Shown: in pieces, positions 5,563 through 56,500 of the stretch | Layout: every line of letters starts with the position of its first letter | Position numbering within the stretch: position 1 is the first letter of the stretch | Assembly: GCA_001028815.1 (NCBI GenBank) | Contig: LDJB01000004.1 | Coordinates: 13,733 to 77,732, forward strand | Origin: Peptococcaceae bacterium 1109 | Lineage (GTDB): Bacteria; Bacillota; Limnochordia; Darwinibacteriales; Darwinibacteriaceae | Reading direction: 5' to 3' | Length of the DNA stretch: 64,000 nucleotides | The notes under the pieces: model-generated | Told to the model about the DNA's origin: nothing | Database searches by the model: none | The model's input: the letters and a program-made list of their open reading frames with translations, nothing else | Translations under genes and position numbers: made by a program

Positions 5563-5649
5563 ACGGTATCACTCCCCTGCTGCAGTGCCTTGAGAGCAAT
5601 TGTACCATGCGGTAGCCGGCGTGGAACCTTATCCATCCAAAAGTACCCA

Positions 5650-24088: not shown

Positions 24089-25660
24089 ATGGAAGACACA
24101 CCGAAAACCCAAGACTCAACCGAATACTCATGGCAAGAACGTGCACTTAAAGCAGAAGCTGAGTTGGCCAAGGCCCTCCAGAAACTGGAGTACCTCGAGG
24201 CTCAACTGCGCCTGCTGACTGCCAAGCGCTTTGGCAGATCCAGCGAGAAGACGAGCAAAGATCAGCTTCAGCTCTTTGAGGACGTTTTCAATGAAGCCGA
24301 ATCAAACGCAGAGCCCTTTGCTCCGGAGCCGGAGCTGATCACGGTGCCCGCCCACCAGCGTGCCAAGCGCAAGAAAAAGAAAGGTGTCAGCCTCGAAGGC
24401 CTGCCCGAGACCGTGGTTGAATACCGCCTTCCCGAGGAAGAGCTGACCTGTTCCTGCGGCCATGAAAGGCATATCATCGGCCAAGAGGTTACCAAAGAGC
24501 TGGTCGTGGTGCCGGCCCAGTTTTCCGTTACTAAGCATGTGCAGTATGTTTACGCCTGCCGCCACTGCGAGAATCACGGAGATGGCACGGCTCCCGTTGT
24601 GGTCAAAGCACCGAAACCAAACCGGGCTTTCCCGGGCAGTATTGCTTCTCCTTCTGCAGTAGCACATGTCATTGAAGAGAAGTACGTTATGGCCGTTCCC
24701 CTCTACCGTCAGGAGAAACAGTGGGAGCGAAGAGGCGTAAAGGTGTCCCGGCAGAACATGGCTAACTGGATCATGGCCGCCCAGCACTGGTTGCAGCCCA
24801 TCTATGACCGCATGAAGCAAGTACTTTTGAGCCAGGACATCATATTTGCCGATGAAACCACTCTCCAGGTTCTCCAGGAAGACGGCAAAAAAGCTGAATC
24901 CCAGTCATACATGTGGCTGTATCGTTCAGGACGTTATGGGCCTGGGATCGTGCTTTTCGAGTACCAGCCCACCCGTTCTGGGGAACACCCGAAAGAGTTC
25001 CTGAAAGGGTTTAAGGGTTACCTGGTCACAGATGCCTATGGAGGTTACAATGGTATCCCCGATGTGACCAGGGTTGGCTGCTGGGCCCATGCTAGAAGGG
25101 GCTTTGATGAAGCCATCAAAGCTGCAGGCAAAAGGTCCAAAGCTCCCCAAGCAGCAGAGGGCCTTAAGTTCTGCAACGATCTGTTTGACATCGAGAATGC
25201 TCTTGAGGATGTCGATCCTAAGGAGCGCTATGCGCGGCGGCTTCTGCGCAGCAAACCTGTGCTGGACGCTTTTTTGGCATGGCTTGAAAAGACCCGCGAG
25301 GAATGTGCCAAGCAAAGCCATTTAGGCAAGGCTGTGGAGTACTGCCTTAACCACTGGAAGGAACTGAACAACTTCCTCTTGGACGGTCGGCTAGAGCTAA
25401 GCAACAACCGCTCAGAGCGGTCCATCAAGCCGTTTGTCATCGGAAGGAAGAACTTCCTGTTCTGCATCACTCCTCGGGGAGCCAAGGCAAGTGCCACAAC
25501 CTACAGCATCGTCGAGTCGGCCAAGGAGAACGGTCTCAAGCCCTTCGAGTACCTGACATACCTGTTCACAGAGCTCCCCAATGCAACCACGAAGGCTCTT
25601 GACGAGTTCCTCCCCTGGTCAGAATCTCTGCCGGATAACTGCCGCATACCCAGCAAATGA
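24089..25660 (+). CDS. tnpC: IS66-family transposase TnpC
   Basis: 523 aa with an N-terminal coiled coil, a Zn-finger (CSCGHERH...CRHC) and a DDE region (...FADETTLQV...LVTDAYGGY...CWAHARR). Confidence 0.9.
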   Translation: MEDTPKTQDSTEYSWQERALKAEAELAKALQKLEYLEAQLRLLTAKRFGRSSEKTSKDQLQLFEDVFNEAESNAEPFAPEPELITVPAHQRAKRKKKKGVSLEGLPETVVEYRLPEEELTCSCGHERHIIGQEVTKELVVVPAQFSVTKHVQYVYACRHCENHGDGTAPVVVKAPKPNRAFPGSIASPSAVAHVIEEKYVMAVPLYRQEKQWERRGVKVSRQNMANWIMAAQHWLQPIYDRMKQVLLSQDIIFADETTLQVLQEDGKKAESQSYMWLYRSGRYGPGIVLFEYQPTRSGEHPKEFLKGFKGYLVTDAYGGYNGIPDVTRVGCWAHARRGFDEAIKAAGKRSKAPQAAEGLKFCNDLFDIENALEDVDPKERYARRLLRSKPVLDAFLAWLEKTREECAKQSHLGKAVEYCLNHWKELNNFLLDGRLELSNNRSERSIKPFVIGRKNFLFCITPRGAKASATTYSIVESAKENGLKPFEYLTYLFTELPNATTKALDEFLPWSESLPDNCRIPSK

Positions 25661-28583: not shown

Positions 28584-29210
28584 CTAGAAATCTGTCTGTT
28601 CCTGCCGCTCTTGAGAAGACTGGGACTTTATCTCCATGAGCCTGGCAGTGACCTCGCGCACAACAGGGATGACCTCAGCTTCGAACCAGGGGTTGCGCTT
28701 CAGCCAGGCCTTATTCCGGGGTGAGGGGTGTACTAGAGGCAAGTAACGGGGTAAATACTCCTGGAAGTGCTTCACCGTCTCCGTTAGGTTTGTTTTGCGC
28801 CGCTCCACTAGATAGTATCTCTGGGAATAGTCACCCACCAGGATGATGGTTTCCACGTTGGGCATAGCCGCCAGGAGCCGGGGGTGCCACTTTTCCGCAA
28901 ACCCAGGCCGAGGCGGGTTGTCCCCAGACTTACCTTTACCGGGATAGTAGAAGTCCATGGGCAGCTGGGCAAGGTAAGGGGAGTTGTAAAACTGGTCTCT
29001 GTCAATGCCCATCCATTCCCGGAGGCGATCGCCGCTGGGATCGTTCCAAAACAGCCGGGTTGCCTCGGCTTTCCTGCCCAGTGCTTGGCCTACGATCACT
29101 AGCCGAGCATCCTTAGAAGCCTTAAACAAGGGAAAGATCCCCCGTTCAGTGTATTCTTTGTTCATGGGATCAGCGGCGATCTCGGCGTGGATTTCATCGA
29201 AGATGGTCAA
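28584..29210 (-). CDS. Uracil-DNA glycosylase superfamily protein (family uncertain)
   Basis: 208 aa. ARLVIVGQALGRKAEA resembles the UDG-superfamily motif-1 region (GEAPG/GQDPY-like), and the size and layout fit. This is a weak motif-level call. Confidence 0.4.
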   Translation of the reverse strand: MTIFDEIHAEIAADPMNKEYTERGIFPLFKASKDARLVIVGQALGRKAEATRLFWNDPSGDRLREWMGIDRDQFYNSPYLAQLPMDFYYPGKGKSGDNPPRPGFAEKWHPRLLAAMPNVETIILVGDYSQRYYLVERRKTNLTETVKHFQEYLPRYLPLVHPSPRNKAWLKRNPWFEAEVIPVVREVTARLMEIKSQSSQERQEQTDF

Positions 29211-34287: not shown

Positions 34288-36339
34288 TTAACCTTCTACC
34301 TGTTCCAGCCCGATTCCTCCTGATGAAGCATCAAGGGAACCGAGTTCTAAGACGTACTCCCAAGGCCGCTTAAGCCGCCGGGTGGACTTGACAAGGCGGG
34401 ACAACTGGCCTGGATGTGACCGGTAATAGTAGAGCTGTTCTTTCAGATTATCCACATAGAACCCTTGATTCAGAGCCCGGGTGATCCATTCGTAGTCTTC
34501 TGCTCCTTTCAGGAAGCTGGTGAGGCCTCCTATGCGTTCAAAGAGAGCACGCTTAAAGAGCAGTGTACCGAAACAGATCACGTGTCCGCCATTCTGGTAG
34601 CTGGTGGCGATCCGCTCAAAACCGTAGCGCACCATGTAGCTTCGTCGCTTTTTGGTAATGTCCCCGGCAAAGACGGCGAAGTTGGTCCCTACGAAACTGT
34701 AGTCAGGGTTAGCAAGGAGGAATGCAACCTGTTTTTCCAGCCTCTGGGGATGGCTTATATCATCTGAGTCTTGATTAGCAATAAGCTTCCCTGTGCTGAG
34801 GCGATAGGCGATGCTTTGGGCCGAGGCATATCCCGTGTTGTGGGGCAATGCCAAATAGACAAAGGAGAGCCCGTCCTTATCTTCCAGCGCAGCCCACCAG
34901 TTCTGGGAAACCTCTCCGGTATTATCTGTGGAACCATCATTGACAACCACGATCTCCAGGGGACGGTATGTCTGGGCGGCTAGGGACTGCAGGCACTCCT
35001 CTAGGTATTGGCCTCGGTTATACGCAGGGATTGCCACGCTGACCAAGGGCCGTTCGTCAAAAAGGGAGAGGCTTGGCACATTCTGCTTGCCTCCCCGCCG
35101 CTTCTGTCCTGCTGGCTTCTCGTCGCTTGTGGCTAGTTCAGGCAGCAAGGACGAGCTCAACTCCTTGCCCGCTAGGGTGTCTTCATAGAACTGCAGGGTC
35201 TGCTTGGCGATGTCTTTGATATCGAAGTTGGCCAATACCCATTCCCGCAGTTTGGCTGCGTTTTGCTCCGCTTCCGCGATGTTTTCTAAGACGCGACGCA
35301 GATCGTTTGTTAACCGTTCCACGGTGAGGGGGTAGGCCCAGTGGTGGTCTCCGAAATACACTGACCAGGCCTTTTCGAGGTTGCTCGGTTCGAGATAGCC
35401 AACATAGGAGGCGTTGCCGCCTGCAATCAACGGCCTTTGGCAACTCAGGGCTTCCAGAGCAACCCGGGCTGTGCCGATAACCACATCCGCTGCTTGGAAG
35501 CAGTGAAGGGGGTCAATCCTTTGACCGATTACCCTTACCACGTCTTTGCTTGCAGCGGCGTTGGCGAGCCGAGCAGCTGCATGGACTAACGGTTGGTGAG
35601 CTCCTCCCCCCACAATCGCGAGGTGAAGGGGAAACTCCCCTTGGAGATTGACAACCGCTTGGATGGCCGCTTCCACAACACGGGTCTTTTCCCAGGCAAG
35701 GCGGCTCACGATGACGGCCAGTCTCTCCTCTTCTGGGATCTGAAGCTCGGCCCGGAAGGGGTTGAGCTTTTCTCCAGGTGTGAAGTACTCCGTATCGACC
35801 CCATTGGGTATTAGTGCAATCTGATGAATGGGATAGTCAATGGCTTTGGAGAGCCAATTGACAACAGGGCTGCTTACGGCAATCACTTTAGGACAGCGAT
35901 CTAGAAGCCCTCTAAGCCTGCGGGGTGGATAAAACTTGCCGTGGATGGTTGCCACCGTGGGTACTAGGGTTTCATCGCTCACTTGGACTGCTACCTTCAG
36001 GGCAGCAATGGAATGGGCATGGATCAGGTTCACACTATGGGTTACAACCAGCTCTTTGGCCTTCTCCAGGAGAAGCTTGTACTCGGAATAGACTGGGTTA
36101 TCGCTCTTGAAGGGCAGGTGTGCGATTTCAAGTTGGCTCTCTGAATATCCATCGAGAAGGACGCCCCCGGCAGTGCCGATAACGACGTTAACGCCCTCCT
36201 TTTTTAGTTGCTTAGCTAATGACAGGACGTGGGTTTCTGTCCCGCCCACATCTAGTTGATTGACCAGCATCAAAACGGTCAGGGCCACATTTACCACCTC
36301 GGTCAAGTTATGCCCTAGTATATGAGGTGGAAAAGCCAT
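34288..36339 (-). CDS. Bifunctional glycosyltransferase: N-terminal GT4 (group 1) plus C-terminal GT2 (family 2)
   Basis: N-terminal ...LVNQLDVGGTETHVLSLAKQL... (GT4 N-domain) and E(x7)E-type C-lobe. C-terminal VSVAIPAYNRGQYLEECLQSLAAQTY...VVVNDGSTDNT (GT2 DxD region). The start is uncertain between 36339 and 36270. Confidence 0.85.
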   Translation of the reverse strand: MAFPPHILGHNLTEVVNVALTVLMLVNQLDVGGTETHVLSLAKQLKKEGVNVVIGTAGGVLLDGYSESQLEIAHLPFKSDNPVYSEYKLLLEKAKELVVTHSVNLIHAHSIAALKVAVQVSDETLVPTVATIHGKFYPPRRLRGLLDRCPKVIAVSSPVVNWLSKAIDYPIHQIALIPNGVDTEYFTPGEKLNPFRAELQIPEEERLAVIVSRLAWEKTRVVEAAIQAVVNLQGEFPLHLAIVGGGAHQPLVHAAARLANAAASKDVVRVIGQRIDPLHCFQAADVVIGTARVALEALSCQRPLIAGGNASYVGYLEPSNLEKAWSVYFGDHHWAYPLTVERLTNDLRRVLENIAEAEQNAAKLREWVLANFDIKDIAKQTLQFYEDTLAGKELSSSLLPELATSDEKPAGQKRRGGKQNVPSLSLFDERPLVSVAIPAYNRGQYLEECLQSLAAQTYRPLEIVVVNDGSTDNTGEVSQNWWAALEDKDGLSFVYLALPHNTGYASAQSIAYRLSTGKLIANQDSDDISHPQRLEKQVAFLLANPDYSFVGTNFAVFAGDITKKRRSYMVRYGFERIATSYQNGGHVICFGTLLFKRALFERIGGLTSFLKGAEDYEWITRALNQGFYVDNLKEQLYYYRSHPGQLSRLVKSTRRLKRPWEYVLELGSLDASSGGIGLEQVEG

Positions 36340-36377
36340 GTGGCATGGCTATTTTTCAAGCTAGTACTGGCGAAGGC

Positions 36378-36710
36378 CTAGTCCTCTACCCATTCCAACC
36401 AGATGCCGTCGTCAAATCCTCCCCGTTCACTTCTCTTCCTGTCCTTGAGTTGCAGGACTTCCTCGAAGGAAGAACCAAGGTGAGCGGCCAAACCATCGAT
36501 TACTTCCAGTATATCCGCGAGCTCTTCTACGTCCCGCTCAGAATCAAGAAACTCTCTCCACTCCTCCAGGAGCTTTGCCTCAAGCCCTGCGATGAGCTGC
36601 TCTCCGCTCACCTGAGAAAAACGGCACTTCTTTCCGTTGGCATTGATGATCTCCGGGATGCGGTCCCGCACTAACTTGTCATATACAGCTATGATAATCC
36701 ACCCTCTCAT
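36378..36710 (-). CDS. HisE/MazG-like all-alpha nucleoside-triphosphate pyrophosphohydrolase
   Basis: 110 aa. YDKLVRDRIPEII...EE..E..DILEVIDGLA matches the PRA-PH/MazG-like NTP-PPase signature. Its start codon overlaps the upstream helicase stop (ATGA). Confidence 0.7.
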   Translation of the reverse strand: MRGWIIIAVYDKLVRDRIPEIINANGKKCRFSQVSGEQLIAGLEAKLLEEWREFLDSERDVEELADILEVIDGLAAHLGSSFEEVLQLKDRKRSERGGFDDGIWLEWVED

Positions 36711-39091
36711 CCTCTTCGTTTGTATAGGCTGGCAACTTTCACCCGTTCGCGATACCTCAGGATATCCTCAATGTGTTGAATAAGCGCAGGCGACTGTCTT
36801 ACCACAACTGTAGGCGCCAGCCGCAGCTGCCTGTTGATCTCATCGTACTGAAAAAACGATGAGCTTCTGTTCAGGAAATGAATGGGGTTGTTCTCAGCCA
36901 AGCGTGTCCATTTCTCCAGCGGCCACTCTGCATAGCCCTTGCTAGATTTATCCTGCATGTCCACTTTGAAACGGGGATCTTGGTAATAACTCTGCATGGC
37001 CTTCCCTATCTCGGTGCTGGACACTGCAGGCCGCAGCCTGCCTTCATGAATAAAGGCCTTGATGGTTGGTATCTTGTAAAGCTTGGTCATGGACGTCTTC
37101 TCAAGGTCAATGAGAAACTCCTCAATATCCGTATCTAGCCAGCTCTCCTCTTCCGTGCTAAGCTCGCCAATATCCGCTAAGAACCGCAGATACCCCTTGA
37201 ACGGACGCAGGTAACTTGGCCTTAGGAACACTCGAGAGGCAATGTCACTCCCGGCATGAATGTCAAGGCGGAGGGGCCTGCGGCCTAAGTCGGCTTTGAT
37301 GCGGAAGTACTCAGCTTTCATCCGTTCAGGCAGCGGATCGTACTTGCGCATCTCCTCAAAGACGTCTAGCAAGCGCATATCAAAGTGCACCATACAGCCC
37401 TCCGCGACAGACTCAGATAGATCGCGGATGCTGTAATAATGATCCCGCTCGTCTTGAGGATTGCGTCCGGTAAGAATCAAGGGTATCCAATGGGCTCTCT
37501 TATAGTTGCCGATGAAGTCTAGGACTGTTACATGTCTTTTGCCTCCACACTTCCTCAAACCCCGCCCCAGCTGCTGCACAAACACTGTATAAGACTCTGT
37601 TGGGCGAAGGAACATGATAAGGTCAACTTCGGGAATATCCACTCCTTCATTAAACTGATCCACCGAGAAGATCACTTCCACTTCCCCAGTGCGCAGGGCC
37701 TTAACGGCTTGTTCTCGGTCCATAACATGCGGGCCTTCTCCGCTGTGTACCGCTACCGCCCTCACCCCATGCTGTCTAAACACGTCCGTCATGAAGTTGG
37801 CATGCCTGATGCCGCTGCAGAACCCCAAGGCCCGCTCTGTTTTGTACTCCTGATAGCACTTCAGAATGAGATCAGCACGGGGTGCGGCAGACAGGGCTCT
37901 TTCTAGCTGTTCACTGACATAGCGGCCGTTAGAAATGTCGATTGTGGAGTAATCGGTCGTATCATCGTAGATCCCGTAGTAGTGAAAGGGCACCAGATAG
38001 TCCTTATTGATTGCCTCCTGAAGGTTGATTTCGTAGACTATATTGTCCTCACAGAACTGATAAATATCCTGATTGTCCATCCGGTACGGCGTGGCGGTTA
38101 ACCCCAGCAAGAAGCGGGGCCTGAAGTAGTCAACTATCCTGCGATAGCTCTGAGCGGCCACGTGGTGAAACTCATCGATGACAATGTAATCAAAGCAATC
38201 AGGCGCAAAATACGATGGCCGCAGGTACCTCTCCTGACCCAACGTTTGCACCGAGGCAAAGACTATATCGGAATCCGTGGCCTTTTCCACGGCATTGAAG
38301 AAGCCCTTAGTCCTTAGTGGCACTACCTTTTCGTAAGTCTCATAGGCTTGACGCAAGATTTCCTCTCGGTGGGCCACAAAAAGGACACGCCGAAACTCTT
38401 GGCTGTCAAATGCCGCCAAGTAGGTTTTGCCTACTCCGGTAGCCATCACAACCATGCCCCGCCGAAAACCCTCTTCCCGAGACCGTTCCAAATAATGGAG
38501 CGCCTCGATCTGCGCCCCCCGTGGAAACACCTCGGCGGCAGGCTCCTGGGGAGTGCTGGAGATTCCCAGCCAGCGAGGCCGCCTCCAAGATAGGCTGTAT
38601 TCTTTGAGCCAGTCGTCATCCACCGGGCGTGCCTGGGTGAACAAAGCATCGAATTGAGTAATGAACTCGTGGTAATCCTCTTGCCTGTACCGCGAAAGGA
38701 GGCGGTAGTTCCATTCTATGCCATCTACCAAACCACTGCGGGACAAGTTTGATGATCCCACGTAGACCTCTCCTGTGGTACCGCCAATGAAAATGTAGGT
38801 CTTGGGATGAAAAGCTATATCCCCAGACTCATATATACGGATATCTGCCTTGTTTTCCAGCTGATCTTTGAGAAGATACAGAGCAGAGGGTTCTGTAACA
38901 TTAAGATAGCGGCCTGTGAGAATCTGCACGGACACCCCGCGCTCCACCGCGCCCTTTAGGTCAGGTAGAAGCAGGCGAACCCCAGATTCGACCACAAAGG
39001 AAACCACCAGTTTGATCTGTTCCGCCCGCCTAATTGACGATTGCAGACTCCTGAGCAAGGAAACCCGATCGTTGGTAATCACGTTACACAC
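36707..39091 (-). CDS. PLD-family (single HKD) nuclease, SF2 DExH helicase and DUF3427 fusion protein
   Basis: 794 aa. HKD motif AFHPKTYIFIGG...VGSSNLSRSGL, Walker A VMATGVGKTYLAAF, motif II DEFHH, motif III GLTATPYR, motif VI QQLGRGLR. The C-terminal ~250 aa are DUF3427-like. Confidence 0.85.
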   Translation of the reverse strand: MCNVITNDRVSLLRSLQSSIRRAEQIKLVVSFVVESGVRLLLPDLKGAVERGVSVQILTGRYLNVTEPSALYLLKDQLENKADIRIYESGDIAFHPKTYIFIGGTTGEVYVGSSNLSRSGLVDGIEWNYRLLSRYRQEDYHEFITQFDALFTQARPVDDDWLKEYSLSWRRPRWLGISSTPQEPAAEVFPRGAQIEALHYLERSREEGFRRGMVVMATGVGKTYLAAFDSQEFRRVLFVAHREEILRQAYETYEKVVPLRTKGFFNAVEKATDSDIVFASVQTLGQERYLRPSYFAPDCFDYIVIDEFHHVAAQSYRRIVDYFRPRFLLGLTATPYRMDNQDIYQFCEDNIVYEINLQEAINKDYLVPFHYYGIYDDTTDYSTIDISNGRYVSEQLERALSAAPRADLILKCYQEYKTERALGFCSGIRHANFMTDVFRQHGVRAVAVHSGEGPHVMDREQAVKALRTGEVEVIFSVDQFNEGVDIPEVDLIMFLRPTESYTVFVQQLGRGLRKCGGKRHVTVLDFIGNYKRAHWIPLILTGRNPQDERDHYYSIRDLSESVAEGCMVHFDMRLLDVFEEMRKYDPLPERMKAEYFRIKADLGRRPLRLDIHAGSDIASRVFLRPSYLRPFKGYLRFLADIGELSTEEESWLDTDIEEFLIDLEKTSMTKLYKIPTIKAFIHEGRLRPAVSSTEIGKAMQSYYQDPRFKVDMQDKSSKGYAEWPLEKWTRLAENNPIHFLNRSSSFFQYDEINRQLRLAPTVVVRQSPALIQHIEDILRYRERVKVASLYKRRG

Positions 39092-39209
39092 AGCCAGTCA
39101 CTCCACACCCATCAGATTGCGCCACCTCGTGTTGGAACTGTTTTCTAGATGTTAAGGCTATTTTCCTTTTGCATCGCTCTGCAGGCGAGAGAGGCAACTG
39201 AGTTCCGCA

Positions 39210-39245
39210 CAAAAAACGACCGACAGCAGCTAAGCTGCTATCGGC
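39210..39245 (-). terminator. Rho-independent terminator after the FMN-binding protein gene
   Basis: On the minus strand, ccgatagcagc-tta-gctgctgtcgg forms an 11-bp stem with one mismatch, followed by UUUUUU. Confidence 0.5.
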
Positions 39246-39261
39246 CGTGTGTATTGATGCA

Positions 39262-40950
39262 TTAGTCTTCAATTGTGAGATCGATGGTTACCCGGTTTTC
39301 GAAGGATTTTCTGATTGCCCCGACGATGTCGCCGTGGGAGTCGTTCAAGCTCATGGTAGCACCGGTGACAACGTCAGCAAGCATTGCCTGTTCTTCTGCA
39401 GTCAAGGCATCGAACTTGGCCTTATCTTGCTCGTTGGTGGAATCGGGCTTGAGAGGCCTACCGTTCCGGTCAGATGTATACTTCGCAAACCATTCTTCCA
39501 CTTCGTCCACAGTCATGCCTACGAAGAGTTCCTCAAAGGTGTTCATCTGATCGGCCCAGGTCCCTACGCCCATGCGGTACCCTTGGCCCCGCTCCCGCTT
39601 GGTCTTCCAGCTGGCAATCTCGGCAGCGAAGAAGGCTTCGCTATCACCAGTCTTGCCATCTACCTTACCGTCGTGGTCAAGGTCCAGGTTGTAGCCGCCT
39701 TGGCCTGGGAAGCCGCTGAAGTGAGGCATGCCGGCTCCATCATAGTTAGGAGTAGAGATCTCCAGCTGATCCACGTGGATAGCTGCGATTCTGCCTTCCC
39801 CGTCAAAGAGGGTGTTGGCAAACACTTGGTTAATGCTGTATACAGGTGTGCCTGTATCATCGCTGCCAGGCCCTACCCGGTGGGTGCTCAGCAGGCCAAG
39901 GCCCATGGAAGCAGCTCCGTTAATGTCAAGGCCAATGCGGTTTTCGTATGCGAAACGAATGGCTTCCACGATGTTGCCGTGAGAGTCGTTCAGGCTCATG
40001 GTAGCGCCAGTGACAACATCAGCAAGCATTGCTTGTTCTTCTGCGGTCAGGGCATCAAACTTTGCCTTGTCCTGCTCGTTGGTGGAACCGGGTTTGAGAG
40101 GCCTGCCGTTCCGGTCAGAGGTATACTTCGCAAACCACTCTTCCACTTCATCAACGGTCATGCCCACGAAAAGGCGCTCAAAGGTGTCCATCTGATCGGC
40201 CCAGGTGCCAACTCCCATGCGGTAGCTGTCGCCCCGCTCCCGCTTGGTTCTCCAGCCAGCTACCTCAGCCGCGAAGTTCTCAACTGTGTCTTCGGTCTTG
40301 CCATCCACTTTGCCGTCGTGGTCCATATCCCAGTTGTAGCCGCCTTGGCCTGGGAAGCCGCTGAAATGAGGCATGCCGTCGCCATCATAGTTGGGAGTGG
40401 CAACTTCTAGCTGATCGACGTGGAGGGCGAGGATTCTGCCTTCCTCATCAAACAAAACATGAGTCATTACTTGATTGATGCTGTATACAGGTGTGCCTGT
40501 ATCATCTGCACCAGGCCCAAAGCGGTGCATGTTCGAAAGGCCAAAGCCTTGGTATACCTTCGCTGCAGTCACGGCCTTAGGCTCTACTGCCTTCTTGGCT
40601 TCCTCAGCCGGTGCCGGGTAGTTCTCTGGGTCTAGTGCGTTATTTACTGCGTAGATGATTGCTTTGCTGGTGATCGTTGCGTTGGTAATGACATCCACAT
40701 CGGTGGAATTGGCTTCCACGATCATCTGGGGGATTTTCTCCAATGCTGGTCCTGCAATAGCTGGTGTTTCCCGTTCACCAACTGCTTCAACCGCGATGAT
40801 TTTGTCTCCTTGCTTGGTTACGGTAACGATAATCTCGCCGCCGAAACCTTTCGCCTTACCAACAAGAGTTTCTACCGCTTCGGCACTGCCCATCAGTGCG
40901 AGGGCGCCAACCAGTAAGAAACAGCAGCCAACCAACAACGCCTTCTTCAT
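39262..40950 (-). CDS. Secreted FMN-binding-domain protein carrying two tandem near-identical ~215-aa repeat domains
   Basis: The preferred start is MKKALLVGCCFLLVGALALMGSAEA (signal peptide) at 40950. An FMN_bind-like region follows (GFGGEIIVTVTKQGDKIIAVEAVGERETPAIAG...ITNATITSKAII). Two repeats then follow, ...HRFGPGADDTGTPVYSINQV...VGTWADQM.TFE.LFVGMTVDEVEEWFAKYTSDRNGRPLKP.STNEQDKAKFDALTAEEQAMLADVVTGATMSLNDSHG.IV.AIR, more than 90% identical to each other. Confidence 0.75.
   Translation of the reverse strand: MKKALLVGCCFLLVGALALMGSAEAVETLVGKAKGFGGEIIVTVTKQGDKIIAVEAVGERETPAIAGPALEKIPQMIVEANSTDVDVITNATITSKAIIYAVNNALDPENYPAPAEEAKKAVEPKAVTAAKVYQGFGLSNMHRFGPGADDTGTPVYSINQVMTHVLFDEEGRILALHVDQLEVATPNYDGDGMPHFSGFPGQGGYNWDMDHDGKVDGKTEDTVENFAAEVAGWRTKRERGDSYRMGVGTWADQMDTFERLFVGMTVDEVEEWFAKYTSDRNGRPLKPGSTNEQDKAKFDALTAEEQAMLADVVTGATMSLNDSHGNIVEAIRFAYENRIGLDINGAASMGLGLLSTHRVGPGSDDTGTPVYSINQVFANTLFDGEGRIAAIHVDQLEISTPNYDGAGMPHFSGFPGQGGYNLDLDHDGKVDGKTGDSEAFFAAEIASWKTKRERGQGYRMGVGTWADQMNTFEELFVGMTVDEVEEWFAKYTSDRNGRPLKPDSTNEQDKAKFDALTAEEQAMLADVVTGATMSLNDSHGDIVGAIRKSFENRVTIDLTIED
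39300..40590. repeat. Direct tandem duplication, 2 x ~645 bp at about 90% nucleotide identity, inside the FMN-binding protein gene
   Basis: For example 39331-39490 aligns with 39975-40135, and 39733-39860 aligns with 40383-40510, with only scattered substitutions. Confidence 0.8.
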
Positions 40951-41216
40951 CTTTCTTCCCACACAAGTTCCTCCCTCGTACATTTGTTGTTCCCCGTACT
41001 GCAAATGGACCTGGCAGAGGGCTTTTGATTGCGGCATAAGTCTTTTGTGATTGTGAACTTATTCGCAATCCAAGCTCTACTATACCACATTCCCTGCAGT
41101 AGTCAATAGGTTAAGGAGAACTTATATAGAATTCTTGTGATAAAACTCTCGTGCATAGCACCAGCAGCAAAAACCCAGCTTACCACAGGGTTTGCTGGGC
41201 GCTTTCAGCCGTACTC

Positions 41217-42086
41217 CTAACTAGCCTGTGCCTTTTGGCGAATGAGGGACCCGTTCGGAGGCGGGATCTTCTCCCCATCAATGTGGTTCAGCTCACAAAA
41301 ATGCTGGAAAAACTCCTTAGCCAGCTCTTCCCCTTCGGTCTCGGCCCTCAAGGAAACTACATCTCGGAGAATCTGCGCCATCCAGATGTTGTGGAAGTAG
41401 CGGTGCCTCCCCCGATTCCAAGTGGTGTTCAAGGGATATCTTTCGTCGCAGTAGTAGTTCCAGAAGAGGAGCCTCTGAGATTCTTCTTCAGAAAAGCGCA
41501 GCCTGTACTTGGGATGCCCGGGGATATAACCGTCGTCACACAGTTTACCCACGAAGGTTTCATCTGCCAGAAAAACGCCTGCAATCCGCCGGTCTTCCTC
41601 AGCCATGCCCTGTTCCCGCTCAGTAATAAGGCAGGCACTATTGTTGCCCATACGCACTAAGCGCACCGGTTTCCCTGCATCCTGTCCCGATTTACGGAGC
41701 CCTGTGAAGACCCGCCACTCGGCGAACACCTTCTCCAGCTCCTCCCCATCACACCAAAAGCACGCCTGAGATGCGGGGGAAAACGCCTGGCTTCTGAGGA
41801 GCCGCTCCCGCTCCAACTCCCTCTGACGCTCCGCCAATTCCTCAGCTCGCTGCTTGTCTAGGGCGCGGCGCTTTGCTTTTCGCTTTTTTTCAACTTCTTT
41901 TTTGAGATCCTCTACCAACCTTGCCGTTTCTGGATCAGTCAGGCTCAAGTACGTCCCAAACGCATCGGGAAAAGCGAACCGCTTTTCTCCCACCGGGAAG
42001 CGCACTCTCACGTGGGATGCGGTGCAGTCTACCACTGTTCCGTCGCCAAAATGCTCGTGCCTCACCTGCTGATTGAGCAAATTCAT
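41217..42086 (-). CDS. Hypothetical protein with an N-terminal UvrD/PcrA-C-terminal-like (Tudor-like) domain, a basic coiled coil and a Cys/His-containing C-terminal domain
   Basis: The preferred start is MNLLNQQVRHEHFGDGTVVDCTASHVRVRFPVGEKRFAF at 42086, which has a TGGAGGAA RBS. The HxxFGxGxV motif matches the helicase C-terminal Tudor-like domain. KKRKAKRRALDKQRAEELAERQRELERERL forms a basic coiled coil. Confidence 0.5.
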   Translation of the reverse strand: MNLLNQQVRHEHFGDGTVVDCTASHVRVRFPVGEKRFAFPDAFGTYLSLTDPETARLVEDLKKEVEKKRKAKRRALDKQRAEELAERQRELERERLLRSQAFSPASQACFWCDGEELEKVFAEWRVFTGLRKSGQDAGKPVRLVRMGNNSACLITEREQGMAEEDRRIAGVFLADETFVGKLCDDGYIPGHPKYRLRFSEEESQRLLFWNYYCDERYPLNTTWNRGRHRYFHNIWMAQILRDVVSLRAETEGEELAKEFFQHFCELNHIDGEKIPPPNGSLIRQKAQAS

Positions 42087-42259
42087 CTGCGTTCCTCCAT
42101 TATTGTCTTGTCTTAATGATACCACACTGGCGAGAGAAACGCAAATTTGGCATTGACACTACTTTCCAGCCAGTGTAAAATGTAGTTTTATATATTGCCG
42201 GCTCCGGCAGGAGTCAAAAAAACGTGCGCCCTTTCGAGCGCACGCTCCTTACCGATCTG

Positions 42260-47473: not shown

Positions 47474-48682
47474 TTAGTAGATGGTTTTCTGCAGTTCAGC
47501 GTATTCCTCAAACAAGGTAAGGCACTGTTCTCTCCCGTACTCGGAGATCGCTAGGACAGAGGTGTCCTGCTGCCCCCCTTCAATGAAGCGGTAGATGAAG
47601 GCATCCCGGAAACCGATCTCCTCCGCATCTTCCGGCCTGCAGCCGTACACTACTTGCTTCACATTGGCCCAGATAATCGCGGAAAGACACATTGGACAAG
47701 GGTAGGCGGTGGTGTAGATCCAACAGCCAGTGAGGTCGTGGGTGCCTAAGATCTGCCCTGCTAAGCGGATGGCATTGATCTCCGCATGAGCGGTGGGATC
47801 GTGATCCCGCAGCACGCTGTTGGAAGCGACGCACACAATGTTGCCTTCTCCATCAATCACCGCGGCACCGAAAGGCCCTCCAATATCCTGCCGCATGGTC
47901 GTCCTCGCCTGTTCAATAGCCCTGGCCATGGCTTCATCCATAGCGGTACCTCCGTGCTTTGCTCCAATGTCTACGGGGAAGTCAAAATACGTATCAGGGT
48001 ACGGTTCACCCACCAGGCTGTAGTGCCACCATTCCTCAGGATAGGGAGCAAAGCCTGCGGCCACCATAGCATCTCGGAGGATGCTGCGGTTGGCGGCTTG
48101 CTCAGGGGTGATGAGGTCTGTTCCGTGGTGGGAAATCTCACCGAAGAAATCAAAACCGCTGCCCATATCTACTTCTTCCCCAGTGTCCTTGTACACCAGT
48201 GTTAAGTCCACCACGCTACCCCGGGTGTGTCCAGATTTCTCCGCAATGTAACCAAGCTCAAAGAGCCGGGACTTGTCCACCTGAGGATAGAAGATCCCTT
48301 TCATCTTCTGGTCCTCCAAGTCTGCGGCCCAGCGCACAAAATGGTCCACGGCCCGCTGTGGCCGGTAAGCATCGAAAACCTTGATGTAGTACCCCTGCTC
48401 ATCTAAGATATCCGCAGCGACTTTCAACGCCGCGGCAGCTTCTTCAGTGAGGATGGCAACGGGAGCCTCGTAACCATCGACAGGCGCTCCTACGAAGTTA
48501 TTGTCCCCGTAATACCTGATCTCAAGTTGGGCAGTTTCCACCACATCCGTGACATACACGAAACCTTCAGGAAGAGTGAATGCCGAAGCTTGAGCAGTAA
48601 CGCAGGCCAACACCAACAGTACCCAAAGGACGCCAGCTTTTCTCTTGAACATCTCTCTGCACCTCCTTGAAACGTAAGCCAT
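47474..48682 (-). CDS. Secreted fusion of a VanX-like D-Ala-D-Ala dipeptidase (M15D) and a CDA-fold nucleoside/nucleotide deaminase (TadA/GuaD-like)
   Basis: Signal peptide MFKRKAGVLWVLLVLACVTAQASA. VanX motifs SGHTRGSVVD and EEWWHY. The deaminase carries HAEINAI ... PCPMC zinc ligands. Confidence 0.8.
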   Translation of the reverse strand: MAYVSRRCREMFKRKAGVLWVLLVLACVTAQASAFTLPEGFVYVTDVVETAQLEIRYYGDNNFVGAPVDGYEAPVAILTEEAAAALKVAADILDEQGYYIKVFDAYRPQRAVDHFVRWAADLEDQKMKGIFYPQVDKSRLFELGYIAEKSGHTRGSVVDLTLVYKDTGEEVDMGSGFDFFGEISHHGTDLITPEQAANRSILRDAMVAAGFAPYPEEWWHYSLVGEPYPDTYFDFPVDIGAKHGGTAMDEAMARAIEQARTTMRQDIGGPFGAAVIDGEGNIVCVASNSVLRDHDPTAHAEINAIRLAGQILGTHDLTGCWIYTTAYPCPMCLSAIIWANVKQVVYGCRPEDAEEIGFRDAFIYRFIEGGQQDTSVLAISEYGREQCLTLFEEYAELQKTIY

Positions 48683-52147: not shown

Positions 52148-55100
52148 TCAGCTTTGGCCTTGATCTTTATCCGTGGTAACGCCCCACTCCGCGGCTTTCA
52201 CCACCGCTTGCGTCCGGCTTTGCACGCCTAGTTTCTTAAAGATCTTGTTAGTGTGCCACTTGACCGTCCCTTCAGAGAGGTACAGCTGCTTCCCAATCTC
52301 CCGGTTCGAAAGCCCCTGAACCATCAAGTCAAAGATGCGGCGCTCCTGATTGGTCAAGCTCTCCAACTCAGGGGCGGATACGGCACCTTCTTCTCGCTCC
52401 ACTTGGGCAGAACTGAGTGCCAAGGCCCCTAGCTTCTGCACGATGTCCATGCGCTCGCCGGAAAAGGCACCGGGCGTTAGGTTGTTCTCTAAGTACAAGA
52501 CTCCCCCCAGTTCATCGTCTAAGTAGATAGGGAGGCACTGGATTGATAGGGGTTTCTTTGTGAGGATGTAGGTGTCTTGGCCAAACACTGTGCTGTCTAG
52601 AGCATTGTCAACCAGCACCGGTTCCCCTGCGTTGATCACGTAGGATACTACCGCCTTGGAGACCAGCTCACTTAAGGCCCGCTCTGGATCAGTCACAAAG
52701 CCCACGGAACCGTTGGCTTCCCGAAAGGCCAACGCCTGCAGGGCTTTGCTCGTGCTGTCCAAGGCAAATAAATAAACCCGCTGTGCACCAGAACTGGCCA
52801 CAATCACCTCAAAAAGCTGCTTGATAGCCGCTTCGCTGTCATCGGAGGCCAAGAAGCTGTCGAGCACCTTGCTCACGGTCAGGATATCAGCCATGCGGGA
52901 TACCTCTGCAGGCAAGGACTGGCCATTTATTTCAGGACGGGCGCCCCGAACCTGGGCCCCTTGCCCATCATCAGATTGGGAGGCGCTCTTCACTGCCGGG
53001 CTCTCTTCCAACAGACGGGCCTTCGCGCTGGCGCCAAACCTAGCATAAAGGGATTGGGCTTTCTTCTGGTATGTCTCCCGGTAGTGCTCCATGCCCATTG
53101 CTTCGTAGTGCCTGGCGGCCAGCTCACTAGCGACGGCTGCATCCAAGACATAGCCGTGTTTTTCTGCTGAACTGATTGCTTCTTGGTAAAGCTTGATCCG
53201 CCGCCAGTGGTCTGAGCGTCTGTATGGCAGTTCCGCCAGAGCCAGCTTATATTTGTGGAAGAAGTTCACCGGGCACCAGCGGGCCCACTTCCGGAGCTGC
53301 TTGACATACCTGTTCAAGGCTTTGGCCACCTTCCGCTGCTCCTTCGAATCAAGGCGGTCGTAAACTGCTGCAGAAGCAAGGCATGCCCAGAAGATGTGTG
53401 CCGCATAGAGGATTTTGCCCCTGAGCGCCTCCAGCTTGTCGCTGATCTCCTTCACGGCCCCGTACGCCTCTAAGTAATCTCCCCGCAGATAGCTCACTTG
53501 AATCTTCATCAAGTAATGGTAGGGGACGATCATAGCAGAGTCTGTGTGGAGCATGCGCTGGACCACACTTTCCGGAATGGTGTACTCCTCCAGCTCCCCC
53601 CTCAGGCTCTTTATATAGACATTCACCGCTTCATGAATGTCCACCAATAACAGCATGCCGTACTTTGTTGTTTCCCCCAAGGCCATCTCATTTACTGCCG
53701 CGAGTTCGTCCAATGATTCCCCTAAGGCGTGGTGAACCTGCACGAGTTCGGTGACCGCGGCACCTGCAAATAGAGTGTCGCCGTGCTCGTAAGCTGCCGC
53801 GTAGACCTGCCTAGCATAGTCTAGGCTTGTGCGTAGATGCTTGTGCCAGAAGTTGAGAAACGCGCTGACAACATAATAGGTCCTGTACCTGATGCTAGGG
53901 CTGCTCGTTTCCGCAAGCTCAAGTGCAATGTCTTGGAGCCTGCGGACTTTAGGCAAGTTCAACCCCAATCCATATGCCACAATAGGATAACACGCAAAAG
54001 CAAAGGCGGAGGCATCACACCGGCCGTACTTCAAGGTCAGGTAGTTCATCTTCAAAACAACGTACACAAACAGCTCGGGGTTAACTAAACTCGTGGGAGG
54101 CACCAAGCTTGCCAGCAGCTCCATTGTCCTCTGGGCCCATGGATCCTCCATTTCTGGTTGGTGCAGGAGGGCTTTGAATGGCCTGGTTAAGAAAAGCAGG
54201 GTTACCCCAAGGAACACCCAGGCAATGTTCCACGGCTTGGGGCGAACGGGGAGCTTCAGCCCGTGGTACATAAGGCCTGTAATCCCCGCTTTAATCGCTT
54301 CGTCGTCTGTGTGATACCCGGTGCAAAGAATTGTCTTGAGCTCATAGACACCTATCAGTTCCTGCCCCGGCTGCGCGTGGCTCACTATCTCGTGGAAAAT
54401 CGGCTCGGCGCTAGCGAAGCCGTTGAGCACGAACGTGCAGTAATAGTAACTGGTGAAAATGTCATAACTCAGTTGGTGGGCTTTGTGCCAATGATCAGAT
54501 GGCAGAAGTTTCACCGCGAAGGCCAAGTAGCGCAGGGCAGCCTGAAAGGCGATTACCGCCTTAGCCCGATTGGCCGCCTCCAAATTAAGGTGGGCAAGTT
54601 CTAGCTGTTCAGCCTCTGTAGCAATTAACTCCGCACTTTCGTTTAGATGGTCAACTGCCTCAAAAAGCAAACTGGATGCGTCCCCCGTTGCGGCTTCCAA
54701 AAACCTTCTTCCCGCTCGCTGGTGGATCTTTTTCCGTTCCAAAGGGCCGAGAAGGGCATAAGCAGTTTCCCTGATGCGGGCATGAAGGAAAGCAAAGGCA
54801 GAGCCATCTCCAGAGTCCTCATCGCTCTCCACAGCAATTGCGGCCTCTACAGCGGGCTGAAGCAAATGCCGAATGTGCCCTGGAGGCTGGCCCAGAATTG
54901 CCCCAAGGCCCTCCAGGGAAAAGGGCTGTTTCAAGCATGCGGCAATCTTCAACAGCTCCACCGTTTCCAAGGGCAGCCGCTTGATGCGCTCCTTGACTAG
55001 GTCAACCACATCTTGGGGCAAAGCCATCTCCTTGAGGCCTTCTCCCCGGTACTGCCAGCAATGCCCTTTAGGGGAAAATGTGAGAAGGCCGTCCTCGTTG

Positions 55101-56500
55101 AGCTTCTGCAGGATCTGCTTCACGTGGAAAGGGTTGCCTGCAGACTTCTGATACACGTCCTCCAACAGCGGCTCCAGCCCACCATCTTCTAGGTGCACCA
55201 AGCTGCGGATCAGTTGGGCGGTCTGGGGCTTCGCAAGCACATCCAACTCCATGGTGCTGATGGAGATGTCCCCCCGGGCCTTCGCCTCACCCACCCAGGC
55301 CAGGAAGGGATGAGAGCTGTCCATTTCATTGCAGCGGTACGCACCAATAAACAGCAGGCGGCTCTCAACGGCATTGTCCAGCAGGGAACAGATCATCTGG
55401 CATGAAGCTGCGTCAATCCACTGCAGGTTATCTAGGAACACCACCAGCGGGGCTGGCCCGCCCAAGGCCACGTGTAGAAACTCAGAGAACGCGCGGCGAA
55501 ACCGCTGTTCCGCTTCGCGCACAGATTCATAGGCTGCAGTCTCAAACTCCCCTGCCACCAGCTCCAGTTCAGGTATGAGCTCGCCGATCCTAGCCCCGTC
55601 CTTTCCCAGCACCTTTCGAAACCTATCCCGCCACAGGGCCAACTGCCCTGGATCCCCCGCAAGGATTTGGCGGATCCTCTCCCGCAAGATCTGCACCAAA
55701 GGTGCATAGGGCGCGCTGGTGCGGTACTGGTCAACATCGCCCCGGACGAAATCCACTTTCGCTGCTGCATCGGTCCGCCGAAAGGCTTCCACCAGGGCAG
55801 TCTTGCCCGTGCCTGGGAAGCCTGCAACCAGGGCGATCTCTGTCCTCCCTGTGCAGACTCTGTGAAAAGCCTCTGTGAGTCTCGCGAGTTCTCCATCCCG
55901 TCCCACCAATGGGCCCCCGCGGCCTATGCCCCGGAGGCTATCTGCTTGTCCCAGGTCAAAGTATGCCACACTTCCCGTGCTCAGCCACTCGTCCCGGCAG
56001 CGCTCCAAGTCCACTTGGAGGCTGAACGCGCTTTGGTAGCGCTCCGCTGGGTTTTTGGCCAGGAGCTTAAGGACGATTTCCCCGATCACCTGCGGAATGT
56101 CCGGGTCCAGGTCCGCAGGGGATTTCGGCTGGAGGGACGTGTGAGCGTAACTCCAGCCCAAGGCGTCTTTAGCCTCAAAGGGCAGCTCCCCGGTGAGCAG
56201 TTCGTAGAAAACAACTCCCACTGAGTAGAGGTCACTTCTGGCATCTGCTGCTGCTTTGAGCCTGCCTGTCTGTTCCGGAGACATGTAGGGCAGGCACAGT
56301 TCCAAATCACTGGGTGGATCGCCCAGCTCAACCTGTTCCGTGTGAAGGTCAACAGAGATGCACTGGGGCAGCAGCCTCTCTAGCACCACGCCAGCGGCAT
56401 GCTGGCCCGCGAGGAACTTGCACAGGGCCACGCTGGCGTCAAAAAACTGCCCCAGCCCGGCCTTTGGCTCCTGTATAAGTTCAGCCAAGAGTGTCTTCAT
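52148..56500 (-). CDS. Large STAND-type LuxR-family regulator: degenerate partial protein-kinase-like N-terminus, AAA/NB-ARC ATPase, TPR-like helical region, GAF domain and C-terminal LuxR HTH
   Basis: 1450 aa. The kinase C-lobe remnants SPEQ and DLYSVGVVFYELLTG are present, but the HRD catalytic loop is replaced by LERLLPQC and there is no N-lobe. Walker A VAGFPGTGKT. The C-terminal HTH is LTNQERRIFDLMVQGLSNREIGKQLYLSEGTVKWHTNKIFKKLGV. Confidence 0.85.
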   Translation of the reverse strand: MKTLLAELIQEPKAGLGQFFDASVALCKFLAGQHAAGVVLERLLPQCISVDLHTEQVELGDPPSDLELCLPYMSPEQTGRLKAAADARSDLYSVGVVFYELLTGELPFEAKDALGWSYAHTSLQPKSPADLDPDIPQVIGEIVLKLLAKNPAERYQSAFSLQVDLERCRDEWLSTGSVAYFDLGQADSLRGIGRGGPLVGRDGELARLTEAFHRVCTGRTEIALVAGFPGTGKTALVEAFRRTDAAAKVDFVRGDVDQYRTSAPYAPLVQILRERIRQILAGDPGQLALWRDRFRKVLGKDGARIGELIPELELVAGEFETAAYESVREAEQRFRRAFSEFLHVALGGPAPLVVFLDNLQWIDAASCQMICSLLDNAVESRLLFIGAYRCNEMDSSHPFLAWVGEAKARGDISISTMELDVLAKPQTAQLIRSLVHLEDGGLEPLLEDVYQKSAGNPFHVKQILQKLNEDGLLTFSPKGHCWQYRGEGLKEMALPQDVVDLVKERIKRLPLETVELLKIAACLKQPFSLEGLGAILGQPPGHIRHLLQPAVEAAIAVESDEDSGDGSAFAFLHARIRETAYALLGPLERKKIHQRAGRRFLEAATGDASSLLFEAVDHLNESAELIATEAEQLELAHLNLEAANRAKAVIAFQAALRYLAFAVKLLPSDHWHKAHQLSYDIFTSYYYCTFVLNGFASAEPIFHEIVSHAQPGQELIGVYELKTILCTGYHTDDEAIKAGITGLMYHGLKLPVRPKPWNIAWVFLGVTLLFLTRPFKALLHQPEMEDPWAQRTMELLASLVPPTSLVNPELFVYVVLKMNYLTLKYGRCDASAFAFACYPIVAYGLGLNLPKVRRLQDIALELAETSSPSIRYRTYYVVSAFLNFWHKHLRTSLDYARQVYAAAYEHGDTLFAGAAVTELVQVHHALGESLDELAAVNEMALGETTKYGMLLLVDIHEAVNVYIKSLRGELEEYTIPESVVQRMLHTDSAMIVPYHYLMKIQVSYLRGDYLEAYGAVKEISDKLEALRGKILYAAHIFWACLASAAVYDRLDSKEQRKVAKALNRYVKQLRKWARWCPVNFFHKYKLALAELPYRRSDHWRRIKLYQEAISSAEKHGYVLDAAVASELAARHYEAMGMEHYRETYQKKAQSLYARFGASAKARLLEESPAVKSASQSDDGQGAQVRGARPEINGQSLPAEVSRMADILTVSKVLDSFLASDDSEAAIKQLFEVIVASSGAQRVYLFALDSTSKALQALAFREANGSVGFVTDPERALSELVSKAVVSYVINAGEPVLVDNALDSTVFGQDTYILTKKPLSIQCLPIYLDDELGGVLYLENNLTPGAFSGERMDIVQKLGALALSSAQVEREEGAVSAPELESLTNQERRIFDLMVQGLSNREIGKQLYLSEGTVKWHTNKIFKKLGVQSRTQAVVKAAEWGVTTDKDQGQS

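Follow-up and report, generated by a model that had tools for sequence, protein, structure and literature searches.

Do a restriction-like nuclease-helicase gene and the small gene that follows it belong together, and if so, what would a nucleotide hydrolase add to the cutting of DNA? The question is raised by two overlapping genes of Peptococcaceae bacterium 1109, which were analysed within a stretch of 64,000 nucleotides, hereafter the window (GenBank assembly GCA_001028815.1, contig LDJB01000004.1, positions 13,733 to 77,732 of the forward strand; all coordinates below are those of the window). The large gene (36707..39091, minus strand) starts with GTG and encodes 794 amino acids (aa), and an identical 794-aa gene is present in the NCBI record. 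The small gene (36378..36710, minus strand) encodes 110 aa when read from the ATG at 36710, or 104 aa when read from an ATA at 36692. The ATG of the small gene shares 4 nt (ATGA) with the TGA stop of the large gene. In a preliminary description of this DNA, the pair had been taken for a candidate defence module; the positions of the reading frames, the length of 794 aa and the 4-nt overlap given there were all confirmed.

The two genes constitute a conserved two-gene restriction module, co-occurrence being positive in both directions of search. The large protein is predicted to be a relative of the Type IV restriction enzyme SauUSI, and its partner an all-alpha nucleoside triphosphate (NTP) pyrophosphatase. 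The finding is not categorically new; what is new is a variant of the known SauUSI family without the SRA reader.

The large protein as a SauUSI-like nuclease-helicase

Homology to SauUSI marks the product of the large gene as a predicted ATP-dependent restriction nuclease-helicase of the SauUSI family, without the SRA/DUF3427 reader. The best solved-structure match of the 794-aa protein was SauUSI itself (PDB 7clg_A, E = 7.2e-95), with query residues 5-638 aligned to SauUSI 33-665. SauUSI, an ATP-dependent Type IV enzyme, has been characterised and cleaves DNA that contains 5-methylcytosine (5mC) or 5-hydroxymethylcytosine (PMC3141236). Its structure has been solved, with the domain borders placed at residues 1-191 (nuclease), 221-617 (ATPase), 618-805 (coupler) and 806-953 (SRA reader) (PMC7913695). 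The PADLOC model mREase_IV (PDLC03659) also matched the large protein (E = 1.5e-101), only over profile positions 35-570 of 945; the match covers the nuclease-ATPase part and leaves the C-terminal reader part of the model uncovered. The earlier statement that no function had been assigned to this architecture does not hold, as the SauUSI family consists of characterised Type IV enzymes and PADLOC recognises the protein as mREase_IV.

Pfam and motif checks agreed with the single-HKD PLD nuclease and DExH helicase core that had been described previously. The PLD nuclease domain (residues 20-149; 38645..39034, minus strand) was matched by PLDc_2 (3.5e-10). It contains the only HxK motif of the protein, H95-P-K97 (codons at 38801-38809), together with GSSN at 112-115 (N115) and E126. 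Residues H95, K97, N115 and E126 align with H119-K121-N139-E150 of SauUSI, the catalytic set taken from PMC3141236. The superfamily 2 (SF2) DExH ATPase/translocase core (residues 190-531; 37499..38524, minus strand) was matched by ResIII (residues 190-337, 1.4e-37) and Helicase_C (408-513, 1.1e-12). Its motifs are intact: Walker A GVGKT at 219-223 (38423-38437), DEFH at 306-309 (within DEFHH, 38162-38176), TAT at 332 and QQLGRGLR at 506-513. Both the PLD and the helicase motifs were invariant across 14 relatives (alignment A4). The window protein thus resembles SauUSI in its N-terminal single-HKD PLD domain (H-K-N-E), its SF2 DExH ATPase and the first helical subdomain of the coupler. As with SauUSI, no cognate methylase was found near the gene (±10 kb), and a gene for a small nucleotide pyrophosphohydrolase adjoins it (PMC3141236).

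The C-terminal tail

Residues 532-794 (36710..37498, minus strand) comprise a coupler-like region and a family-specific tail. Residues up to 638 align with subdomain 1 of the SauUSI coupler (SauUSI 618-669), and the remainder is helical in the AlphaFold2 (AF2) model, with no detectable similarity to SauUSI. The window protein ends about where the SauUSI coupler would end. Unlike SauUSI, it lacks the SRA/DUF3427 part (SauUSI 806-953) and is approximately 160 aa shorter, and its C-terminal approximately 155 aa form a separate small family.

A DUF3427 tail, as proposed in the preliminary description, was ruled out: residues 528-794 gave no Pfam match even at E ≤ 10, and hhalign returned a probability of 3.3% when the tail profile was compared with a profile of genuine DUF3427 domains. 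In a Foldseek search of the tail, no SRA fold and nothing significant was found, weak winged-helix matches being the only ones, and no SRA or DUF3427 domain was detected elsewhere in the 64-kb window. SauUSI paralogues of 937-1052 aa in other genomes carry DUF3427 at 1e-22 to 1e-76. Longer relatives of the window protein (L149, L151 and L152) align with it through the whole tail and then continue into a Peptidase_S24-like domain and the SRA half of DUF3427. Because these relatives add the SRA part only after the whole tail, the window protein is, as judged from its sequence, a SauUSI-like enzyme without the SRA reader.

The tail is well modelled by AF2 (predicted local distance difference test, pLDDT, >85 from about residue 588 to 794), mostly helical and with small beta hairpins. 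With 207 representative clusters in a set of 1.84 billion proteins, its family is a small one, and the full-length carriers are mostly about 790-845 aa long. The same domain was seen in three other settings: at the N-terminal end of a McrB-like AAA_5 protein, where members of that family have their reader, in fusion with a RecC_C nuclease-like domain, and stand-alone in proteins of about 213 aa (P0177 and about 15 similar ones). As the domain is modular and sits at the reader position of the McrB-like protein, the tail is the best candidate for the DNA target-recognition module of the large protein.

Such an arrangement would have parallels among the modular PLD-nuclease modification-dependent restriction endonucleases, in which an N-terminal HxK PLD domain is joined to a variable C-terminal sensor, winged-helix sensors being among those named (PMC12191111). 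An N-terminal HxK PLD nuclease and a candidate C-terminal sensor are shared by the window protein with END nucleases and BfiI/NgoAVII-type enzymes. END nucleases differ from the window protein in that they lack an ATPase motor and sense their target through an inactivated EndoIII domain; BfiI and NgoAVII are accompanied by methyltransferases and cleave sites that carry no modification. Proteins P0304 and P0175 are among the other contexts in which the tail domain was observed.

The small protein

The small protein is supported as an all-alpha NTP pyrophosphatase of the MazG/HisE type by its motifs, its AF2 model, profile matches and fused homologues, in line with the class that had been proposed for it before. 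It is COG4997-like and has 1341 homologues, named by their sources nucleoside triphosphate pyrophosphohydrolase or house-cleaning noncanonical NTP pyrophosphatase (MazG superfamily). Two acidic motifs, EEWRE at 49-53 and EELADILE at 62-69, make up the putative metal-binding motif (36504-36566, minus strand). Residues E49, E50, E63, D66 and E69 were invariant in an alignment of 20 sequences (A1), and their equivalents were invariant in an alignment of 48 sequences (A3, in the 104-aa numbering). The family has two motifs of its own, an N-terminal Y-[DN]-K-L-V-R-D-x-I-P and a C-terminal K-x3-R-G-G-F. The AF2 model (pLDDT 96.8) has four helices (12-18, 30-50, 55-71 and 76-90).

The Pfam families compared were MazG (PF03819), MazG-like (PF12643) and PRA-PH (PF01503). 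The homologous domains of two fused proteins exceed the PRA-PH gathering score of 21.3 (L147, 24.9; P0312, 25.7), and several family members have precomputed PF12643, PF03819 or PF01503 matches. When the small-family profile was searched against the PDB, seven of the nine top matches were all-alpha NTP pyrophosphatases (HisE, YpjD, MazG-like and MazZ 7ody), each of them sub-significant (E 0.1-1). The only Foldseek matches of the small monomer in the PDB were weak ones to the HisE domain 7bgn and MazG 1vmg (root-mean-square deviation about 2.8-3.0 over about 60 residues, E about 1.5-2.6). The window protein thus shares with the all-alpha superfamily (MazG, HisE/PRA-PH, YpjD, DCTPP1, MazZ) a four-helix core, the EExxE...ExxD signature and a length of about 100 aa; its family differs in having N- and C-terminal motifs of its own, and the similarity to the superfamily members is only marginal (E 0.1-1 against the PDB). 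No match to the small protein was obtained with the PADLOC and NCBIfam models. The small family is nearly missing from phages (1 of 50,697 records), and no functional characterisation of any COG4997-type family member was found in literature searches.

Conservation of the pairing

Co-occurrence of the two genes across genomes had been named beforehand as the deciding test, and it was positive in both directions, with gene fusions in addition. For the forward scan, one genome per species was used and the small-protein alignment served as the query; at least 499 relatives were obtained, and the best 80 loci were analysed. A SauUSI-like gene lay within 3.5 kb of the small gene in 36 of the 80 loci; 34 of these genes were co-oriented with it and 32 were within 600 nt. 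Within the same distance, the small gene was accompanied by an HNH endonuclease of about 330-400 aa in 18 loci, by a McrBC-like pair (DUF2357/PD-(D/E)XK and AAA_5) in three and by a NERD nuclease in three, so that at least one nuclease partner of any kind was present in 53 of the 80. HIT proteins (10 loci) and NUDIX proteins (PADLOC PDC-S07; seven loci) were also found within 3.5 kb. Both orders of the nuclease and the small gene were observed. The pair occurs, among other taxa, in Clostridia, Bacilli, Bacteroidota, Actinomycetota (Eggerthellaceae), Sulfobacillus and a Methanomethylophilaceae archaeon. HIT or NUDIX genes are often interleaved with the MazG-like gene, and since they are present together with it in several loci, NUDIX/HIT and MazG-like genes are not simple substitutes for each other. 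On annotated plasmids of B. cereus and Rhodococcus, an NTP pyrophosphohydrolase likewise adjoins HNH endonucleases. When a partner HNH protein was searched against the PDB, the HNH core alone was matched, and no known reader was found.

For the reverse direction, 80 metagenomic relatives of the large protein were grouped into 41 clusters at 70% identity, 33 of which could be evaluated. A MazG-like, HIT or NUDIX gene lay within 1.5 kb of the large gene, or was fused to it, in 23 of the 33. The fusions are the strongest evidence for the pairing. Fused proteins of the MazG-like-PLD-helicase type were found in L158, L147/L148, P0312 and P0320-P0324, P0320 being named 'HKD family nuclease/...MazG superfamily' by JGI, and HIT-PLD-helicase fusions were found in L151, L154 and L159. 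The slot taken elsewhere by the MazG-like or HIT domain is occupied by an N-terminal S-adenosylmethionine (SAM)-methyltransferase-like domain (Methyltransf_25/TehB-like) in the SauUSI-like proteins of L152 (3781-7674), L155 and L161, which end in a Peptidase_S24-like domain and the SRA half of DUF3427. No link between SauUSI-type enzymes and MazG-like or HIT partners was found in literature searches.

Several other arrangements were recorded during the survey. Two SauUSI paralogues, one with DUF3427 and the other with the window-type tail, flank a NUDIX or HIT gene and the MazG-like gene in L016, L032, L037 and L077 (Bacillaceae) and in L015; the layout suggests multi-specificity cassettes or heterodimers. 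A third class of nuclease-helicase, with an MTES_1575 restriction endonuclease domain instead of PLD, adjoins the MazG-like gene in L013 (4225-6474), L061 (6967-9252) and P0317, and one member of this class has seven C-terminal HNH_repeat units. On haloarchaeal megaplasmids (L163, Halorussus vallis, 5001-6072), the MazG-like gene is followed by a gene for an HD-domain protein and preceded by one for a small winged-helix protein, with no nuclease. A precomputed match to PF26350 is listed for homologue P0131.

Proposed function

The explanation placed first here, tentatively and with a chance somewhat short of even, is that a restriction nuclease is combined with a hydrolase which clears modified deoxynucleoside triphosphates (dNTPs) and so prevents self-restriction. 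By homology to SauUSI, the nuclease would dimerise through its single-HKD PLD domains to give one nuclease site. The target would be recognised by the C-terminal domain of the large protein itself instead of an SRA reader of 5mC, after which the SF2 DExH motor would translocate on the DNA, and foreign DNA would be cut and shredded. The small protein would hydrolyse non-canonical, base-modified dNTPs to the monophosphates and pyrophosphate; such dNTPs may arise, for example, when degraded modified DNA is salvaged, or they may stem from the metabolism of phages. With the modified base kept out of the chromosome, host DNA would be no substrate for the cell's own nuclease, and the hydrolase would have the self-protection role of the methyltransferase in classical restriction-modification (R-M).

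Of the genes called up to 10 kb to either side of the module, none was for a methyltransferase, and for this reason the large protein most likely acts as a Type IV, that is, modification-dependent, enzyme. Hydrolases with suitable activities have been described in two folds: the NUDIX enzyme NudG of E. coli prefers 5-methyl-dCTP (PMC5158307, Table 3), and the MazG-like human DCTPP1 hydrolyses methylated dCTPs and prevents their misincorporation (PMC13291643; PMC4491611). The nucleotide-hydrolysing activity itself appears to matter, because three unrelated hydrolase folds occupy the same position.

The SauUSI-linked NUDIX gene (SAUSA300_2432; PADLOC candidate PDC-S07) is likewise a small pyrophosphohydrolase gene conserved beside SauUSI-type nucleases and dispensable for restriction. 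Linkage of SauUSI to a MutT/NUDIX-type pyrophosphohydrolase was reported in at least 60 genomes, with the function left open (Xu et al. 2011, PMC3141236), and MutT homologues beside SauUSI homologues are mentioned in a figure legend of Bell et al. 2020. The restriction barrier was kept when the NUDIX gene was deleted (Monk et al. 2012, PMC3312211). The SauUSI-linked protein has an alpha/beta fold and is unrelated to the all-alpha, four-helix MazG-like protein of the window, which, judged by the shared setting, is its non-homologous analogue. Since the NUDIX gene is dispensable for restriction, the hydrolase would be accessory, as expected of a protective role.

Several observations weigh against the proposed self-protection. 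Modification dependence is an assumption, because no recognised modified-base reader was found in the large protein and the tail had no significant structural match. HIT enzymes are typically not dNTP hydrolases, and the sanitation model does not obviously explain HIT partners. Nor does simple dNTP sanitation obviously explain a SAM-methyltransferase-like domain in the hydrolase slot. In about one third of the loci with the small gene, no neighbouring gene was recognised as a nuclease, and one large human-gut lineage of the nuclease (30 loci, one cluster) has no hydrolase nearby. The small protein scored 14.5 bits (E = 0.045) against the Pfam MazG-like family, under the cut-off of 27. Finally, the NUDIX deletion was reported as 'data not shown', and the transformation barrier alone was tested (PMC3312211).

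Alternative explanations

The hydrolase could instead be offensive. The MazG-like enzyme would then destroy the non-canonical dNTPs of phages (such as 5hm-dCTP, 5hm-dUTP, dZTP or dUTP) and starve hypermodifying phages, and the nuclease would cut the modified DNA that remains. This is considered unlikely, although it is closest to the idea of the preliminary description, in which the pair was likened to systems that combine DNA targeting with nucleotide depletion. The dNTP-depleting defence enzymes (dCTP deaminase, dGTPase, SAMHD1-like) are stand-alone, deplete canonical dNTPs, abort replication, have other folds and are not linked to nucleases. The likeness lies in the action on the nucleotide pool in an antiviral context, and nothing at the window points to hydrolysis of canonical dNTPs. 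The linkage and the fusions would fit an attack on the phage pool as they fit self-protection, and all-alpha NTP pyrophosphatases of narrow specificity exist (DCTPP1, and MazZ 7ody among the profile matches); a review names the shift to 5hm-dCTP that phages induce as a point at which detection might take place (PMC12707154). However, deletion of the analogous NUDIX gene did not weaken the SauUSI restriction of methylated plasmid DNA (PMC3312211), a phage forced to unmodified DNA would no longer offer the nuclease its own target, and no PADLOC model matches the small protein. The depletion analogy is thus possible but not the best reading, as a NUDIX partner that is dispensable (PMC3312211) is more readily understood as protective or sanitising than as offensive.

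An improbable explanation of another kind is that the enzyme is not modification-dependent. It would read some other feature of foreign DNA, such as an unmodified sequence, free ends, single-stranded DNA or replication intermediates, and the hydrolase would serve another purpose, for example the control of a nucleotide by which, as cofactor or signal, the nuclease is gated. Such a reading would account for the lack of SRA/DUF3427 in the protein and in the whole 64-kb window, and for the restriction of the PADLOC Type IV match to the shared nuclease-ATPase part (35-570 of 945). Enzymes with PLD and SF2 parts that cut unmodified DNA exist (NgoAVII/CglI, mentioned in PMC7913695), SauUSI is also a single-stranded DNA endonuclease (bioRxiv 10.1101/2022.12.11.519956), and the HIT and SAM-methyltransferase-like domains in the MazG slot hint at a broader small-molecule role. 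Against it, a cutter of unmodified sequence would be toxic to its own cell unless it had another safeguard, and no gene for a cognate methyltransferase was called at a distance of up to 10 kb. Moreover, the longer relatives in which the whole tail is followed by the SRA half-domain tie the lineage to the reading of modified bases, and the tail stands at the reader position of the McrB-like protein.

It is very improbable that an all-purpose house-cleaning enzyme and a helicase-nuclease of repair or recombination adjoin each other by chance. Chance adjacency is in keeping with a locus outside any defence island, with the NCBIfam best name of RadD for the helicase core (135 bits, far short of the cut-off of 720) and with the nuclease-free third of the small-gene loci, but it is effectively refuted by the co-occurrence and fusion data, namely adjacency in 36 of 80 species of wide taxonomic range and in both gene orders, independent fusions, and a SauUSI match (7e-95) far stronger than that of any repair helicase.

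If the proposed combination of a restriction nuclease and a sanitising hydrolase is extended beyond the window, Type IV-like nucleases would not be truly solitary; many would be paired with a dedicated small-molecule partner, be it MazG-like, HIT, NUDIX or even SAM-methyltransferase-like, that polices the nucleotide pool and so keeps the targeted modification out of host DNA, and the SRA-less subfamily would read a DNA mark by a new modular sensor common to McrB-like and RecC_C-like proteins. This general form is doubtful.

In Firmicutes, SauUSI-type enzymes strongly hamper both gene transfer and genetic manipulation, and Type IV enzymes are regarded as single-gene systems. The adjacency of SauUSI and a pyrophosphohydrolase has been remarked upon since 2011 and never explained. 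The window and its relatives make the link a general one, with three unrelated hydrolase folds and several nuclease classes, sometimes fused, and turn an old aside into a testable hypothesis on how self-restriction is avoided during the salvage of modified nucleotides. If it is true, the pool-policing partner would be an overlooked metabolic immunity function, equal in its logic to the methyltransferase of classical R-M. The SRA-less SauUSI subfamily could also yield a tool enzyme for the mapping of DNA modifications, together with a new sanitising activity for modified dNTPs.

Start codons and transcription of the module

A near-identical sequence was found in contig DURB01000026.1 of a Firmicutes metagenome-assembled genome (GCA_012837505.1), in which the same 794-aa gene is called. 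In the NCBI record of the identical sequence, the small gene is started at the non-canonical ATA 36692, which gives 104 aa and leaves a gap of 14 nt after the stop of the large gene; the N-terminus of this version, M-x-x-Y-D-K-L-V-R-D, is typical of the small-protein family. The closest relative found, L082, has a large protein that is 74% identical. An overlapping GTGA is retained at its gene junction, and an ATG is also present where the window has the ATT 36698, three codons upstream of the window's ATA 36692. On this evidence, ATG 36710, ATT 36698 and ATA 36692 are all candidate start codons. Whichever is used, both genes read in the same direction with no more than 14 nt between them, and coupling of the small gene to the large one is probably translational, or else transcriptional.

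The 5' boundary of the transcription unit is set by the predicted intrinsic terminator of the upstream FMN_bind gene (39216..39248, minus strand), a 15-bp stem with nine GC pairs followed by a T-run. Between it and the GTG start lies an intergenic region of 124 nt (39092..39215, minus strand), which from its position alone is presumed to contain the promoter and the 5' untranslated region of the module. No promoter site was found when the sequence from the terminator to the GTG start was scanned for the sigma-70 consensus. Of the earlier claim that the module has its own promoter region, the upstream terminator was borne out and a consensus promoter was not found. In the 89-nt spacer 3' of the small gene there is a palindromic hairpin (36334..36350), which is terminator-like on the plus strand and followed only by TTTTCC on the minus strand. 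It may be a weak or bidirectional terminator that parts the module from the glycosyltransferase gene.

Neighbouring genes

The downstream glycosyltransferase gene (GT4 and GT2 domains), which had been considered earlier as a possible third component, was rejected as a member of the module, as no such homologue stood beside the pair in 160 other loci, including L082. The gene has a promoter-like site of its own (36346-36317, minus strand) and a GTG start preceded by a Shine-Dalgarno sequence. The other neighbours are genes for FMN_bind, hemerythrin, chemoreceptor, uracil-DNA glycosylase (UDG) superfamily, AraC regulator, solute-binding and transport proteins, and the GC content does not deviate. 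A defence-island setting, which had also been implied, was dismissed because the surroundings consist of chemoreceptor, transport and regulatory genes, none of them for defence, and no mobile gene lies within 10 kb. The nearest one, an IS66 transposase (24089-25660), was indeed present; its distance from the module, 10.7 kb at the nearer end and up to 12.3 kb, replaces the approximately 12.6 kb previously given.

Some features of the surrounding genes were recorded in passing. The upstream FMN_bind protein (39262-41037, minus strand) contains an internal tandem duplication of a segment of about 215 aa, both halves of which match the same stretch of the L082 homologue. Two genes upstream of the module, a conserved protein of 302 aa (41217-42125, minus strand) gave no family match. 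The UDG-superfamily glycosylase (28584-29210, minus strand) is encoded 7 kb from the module. A protein of 402 aa (47474-48682, minus strand) has an unusual pairing of a VanX-type D-Ala-D-Ala dipeptidase (Peptidase_M15, 1.4e-46) with a cytidine/dCMP deaminase domain (5e-23). A STAND-like regulator of 1450 aa (52148-56500, minus strand) combines a partial protein kinase domain with AAA_16, GAF and a LuxR-type helix-turn-helix domain.

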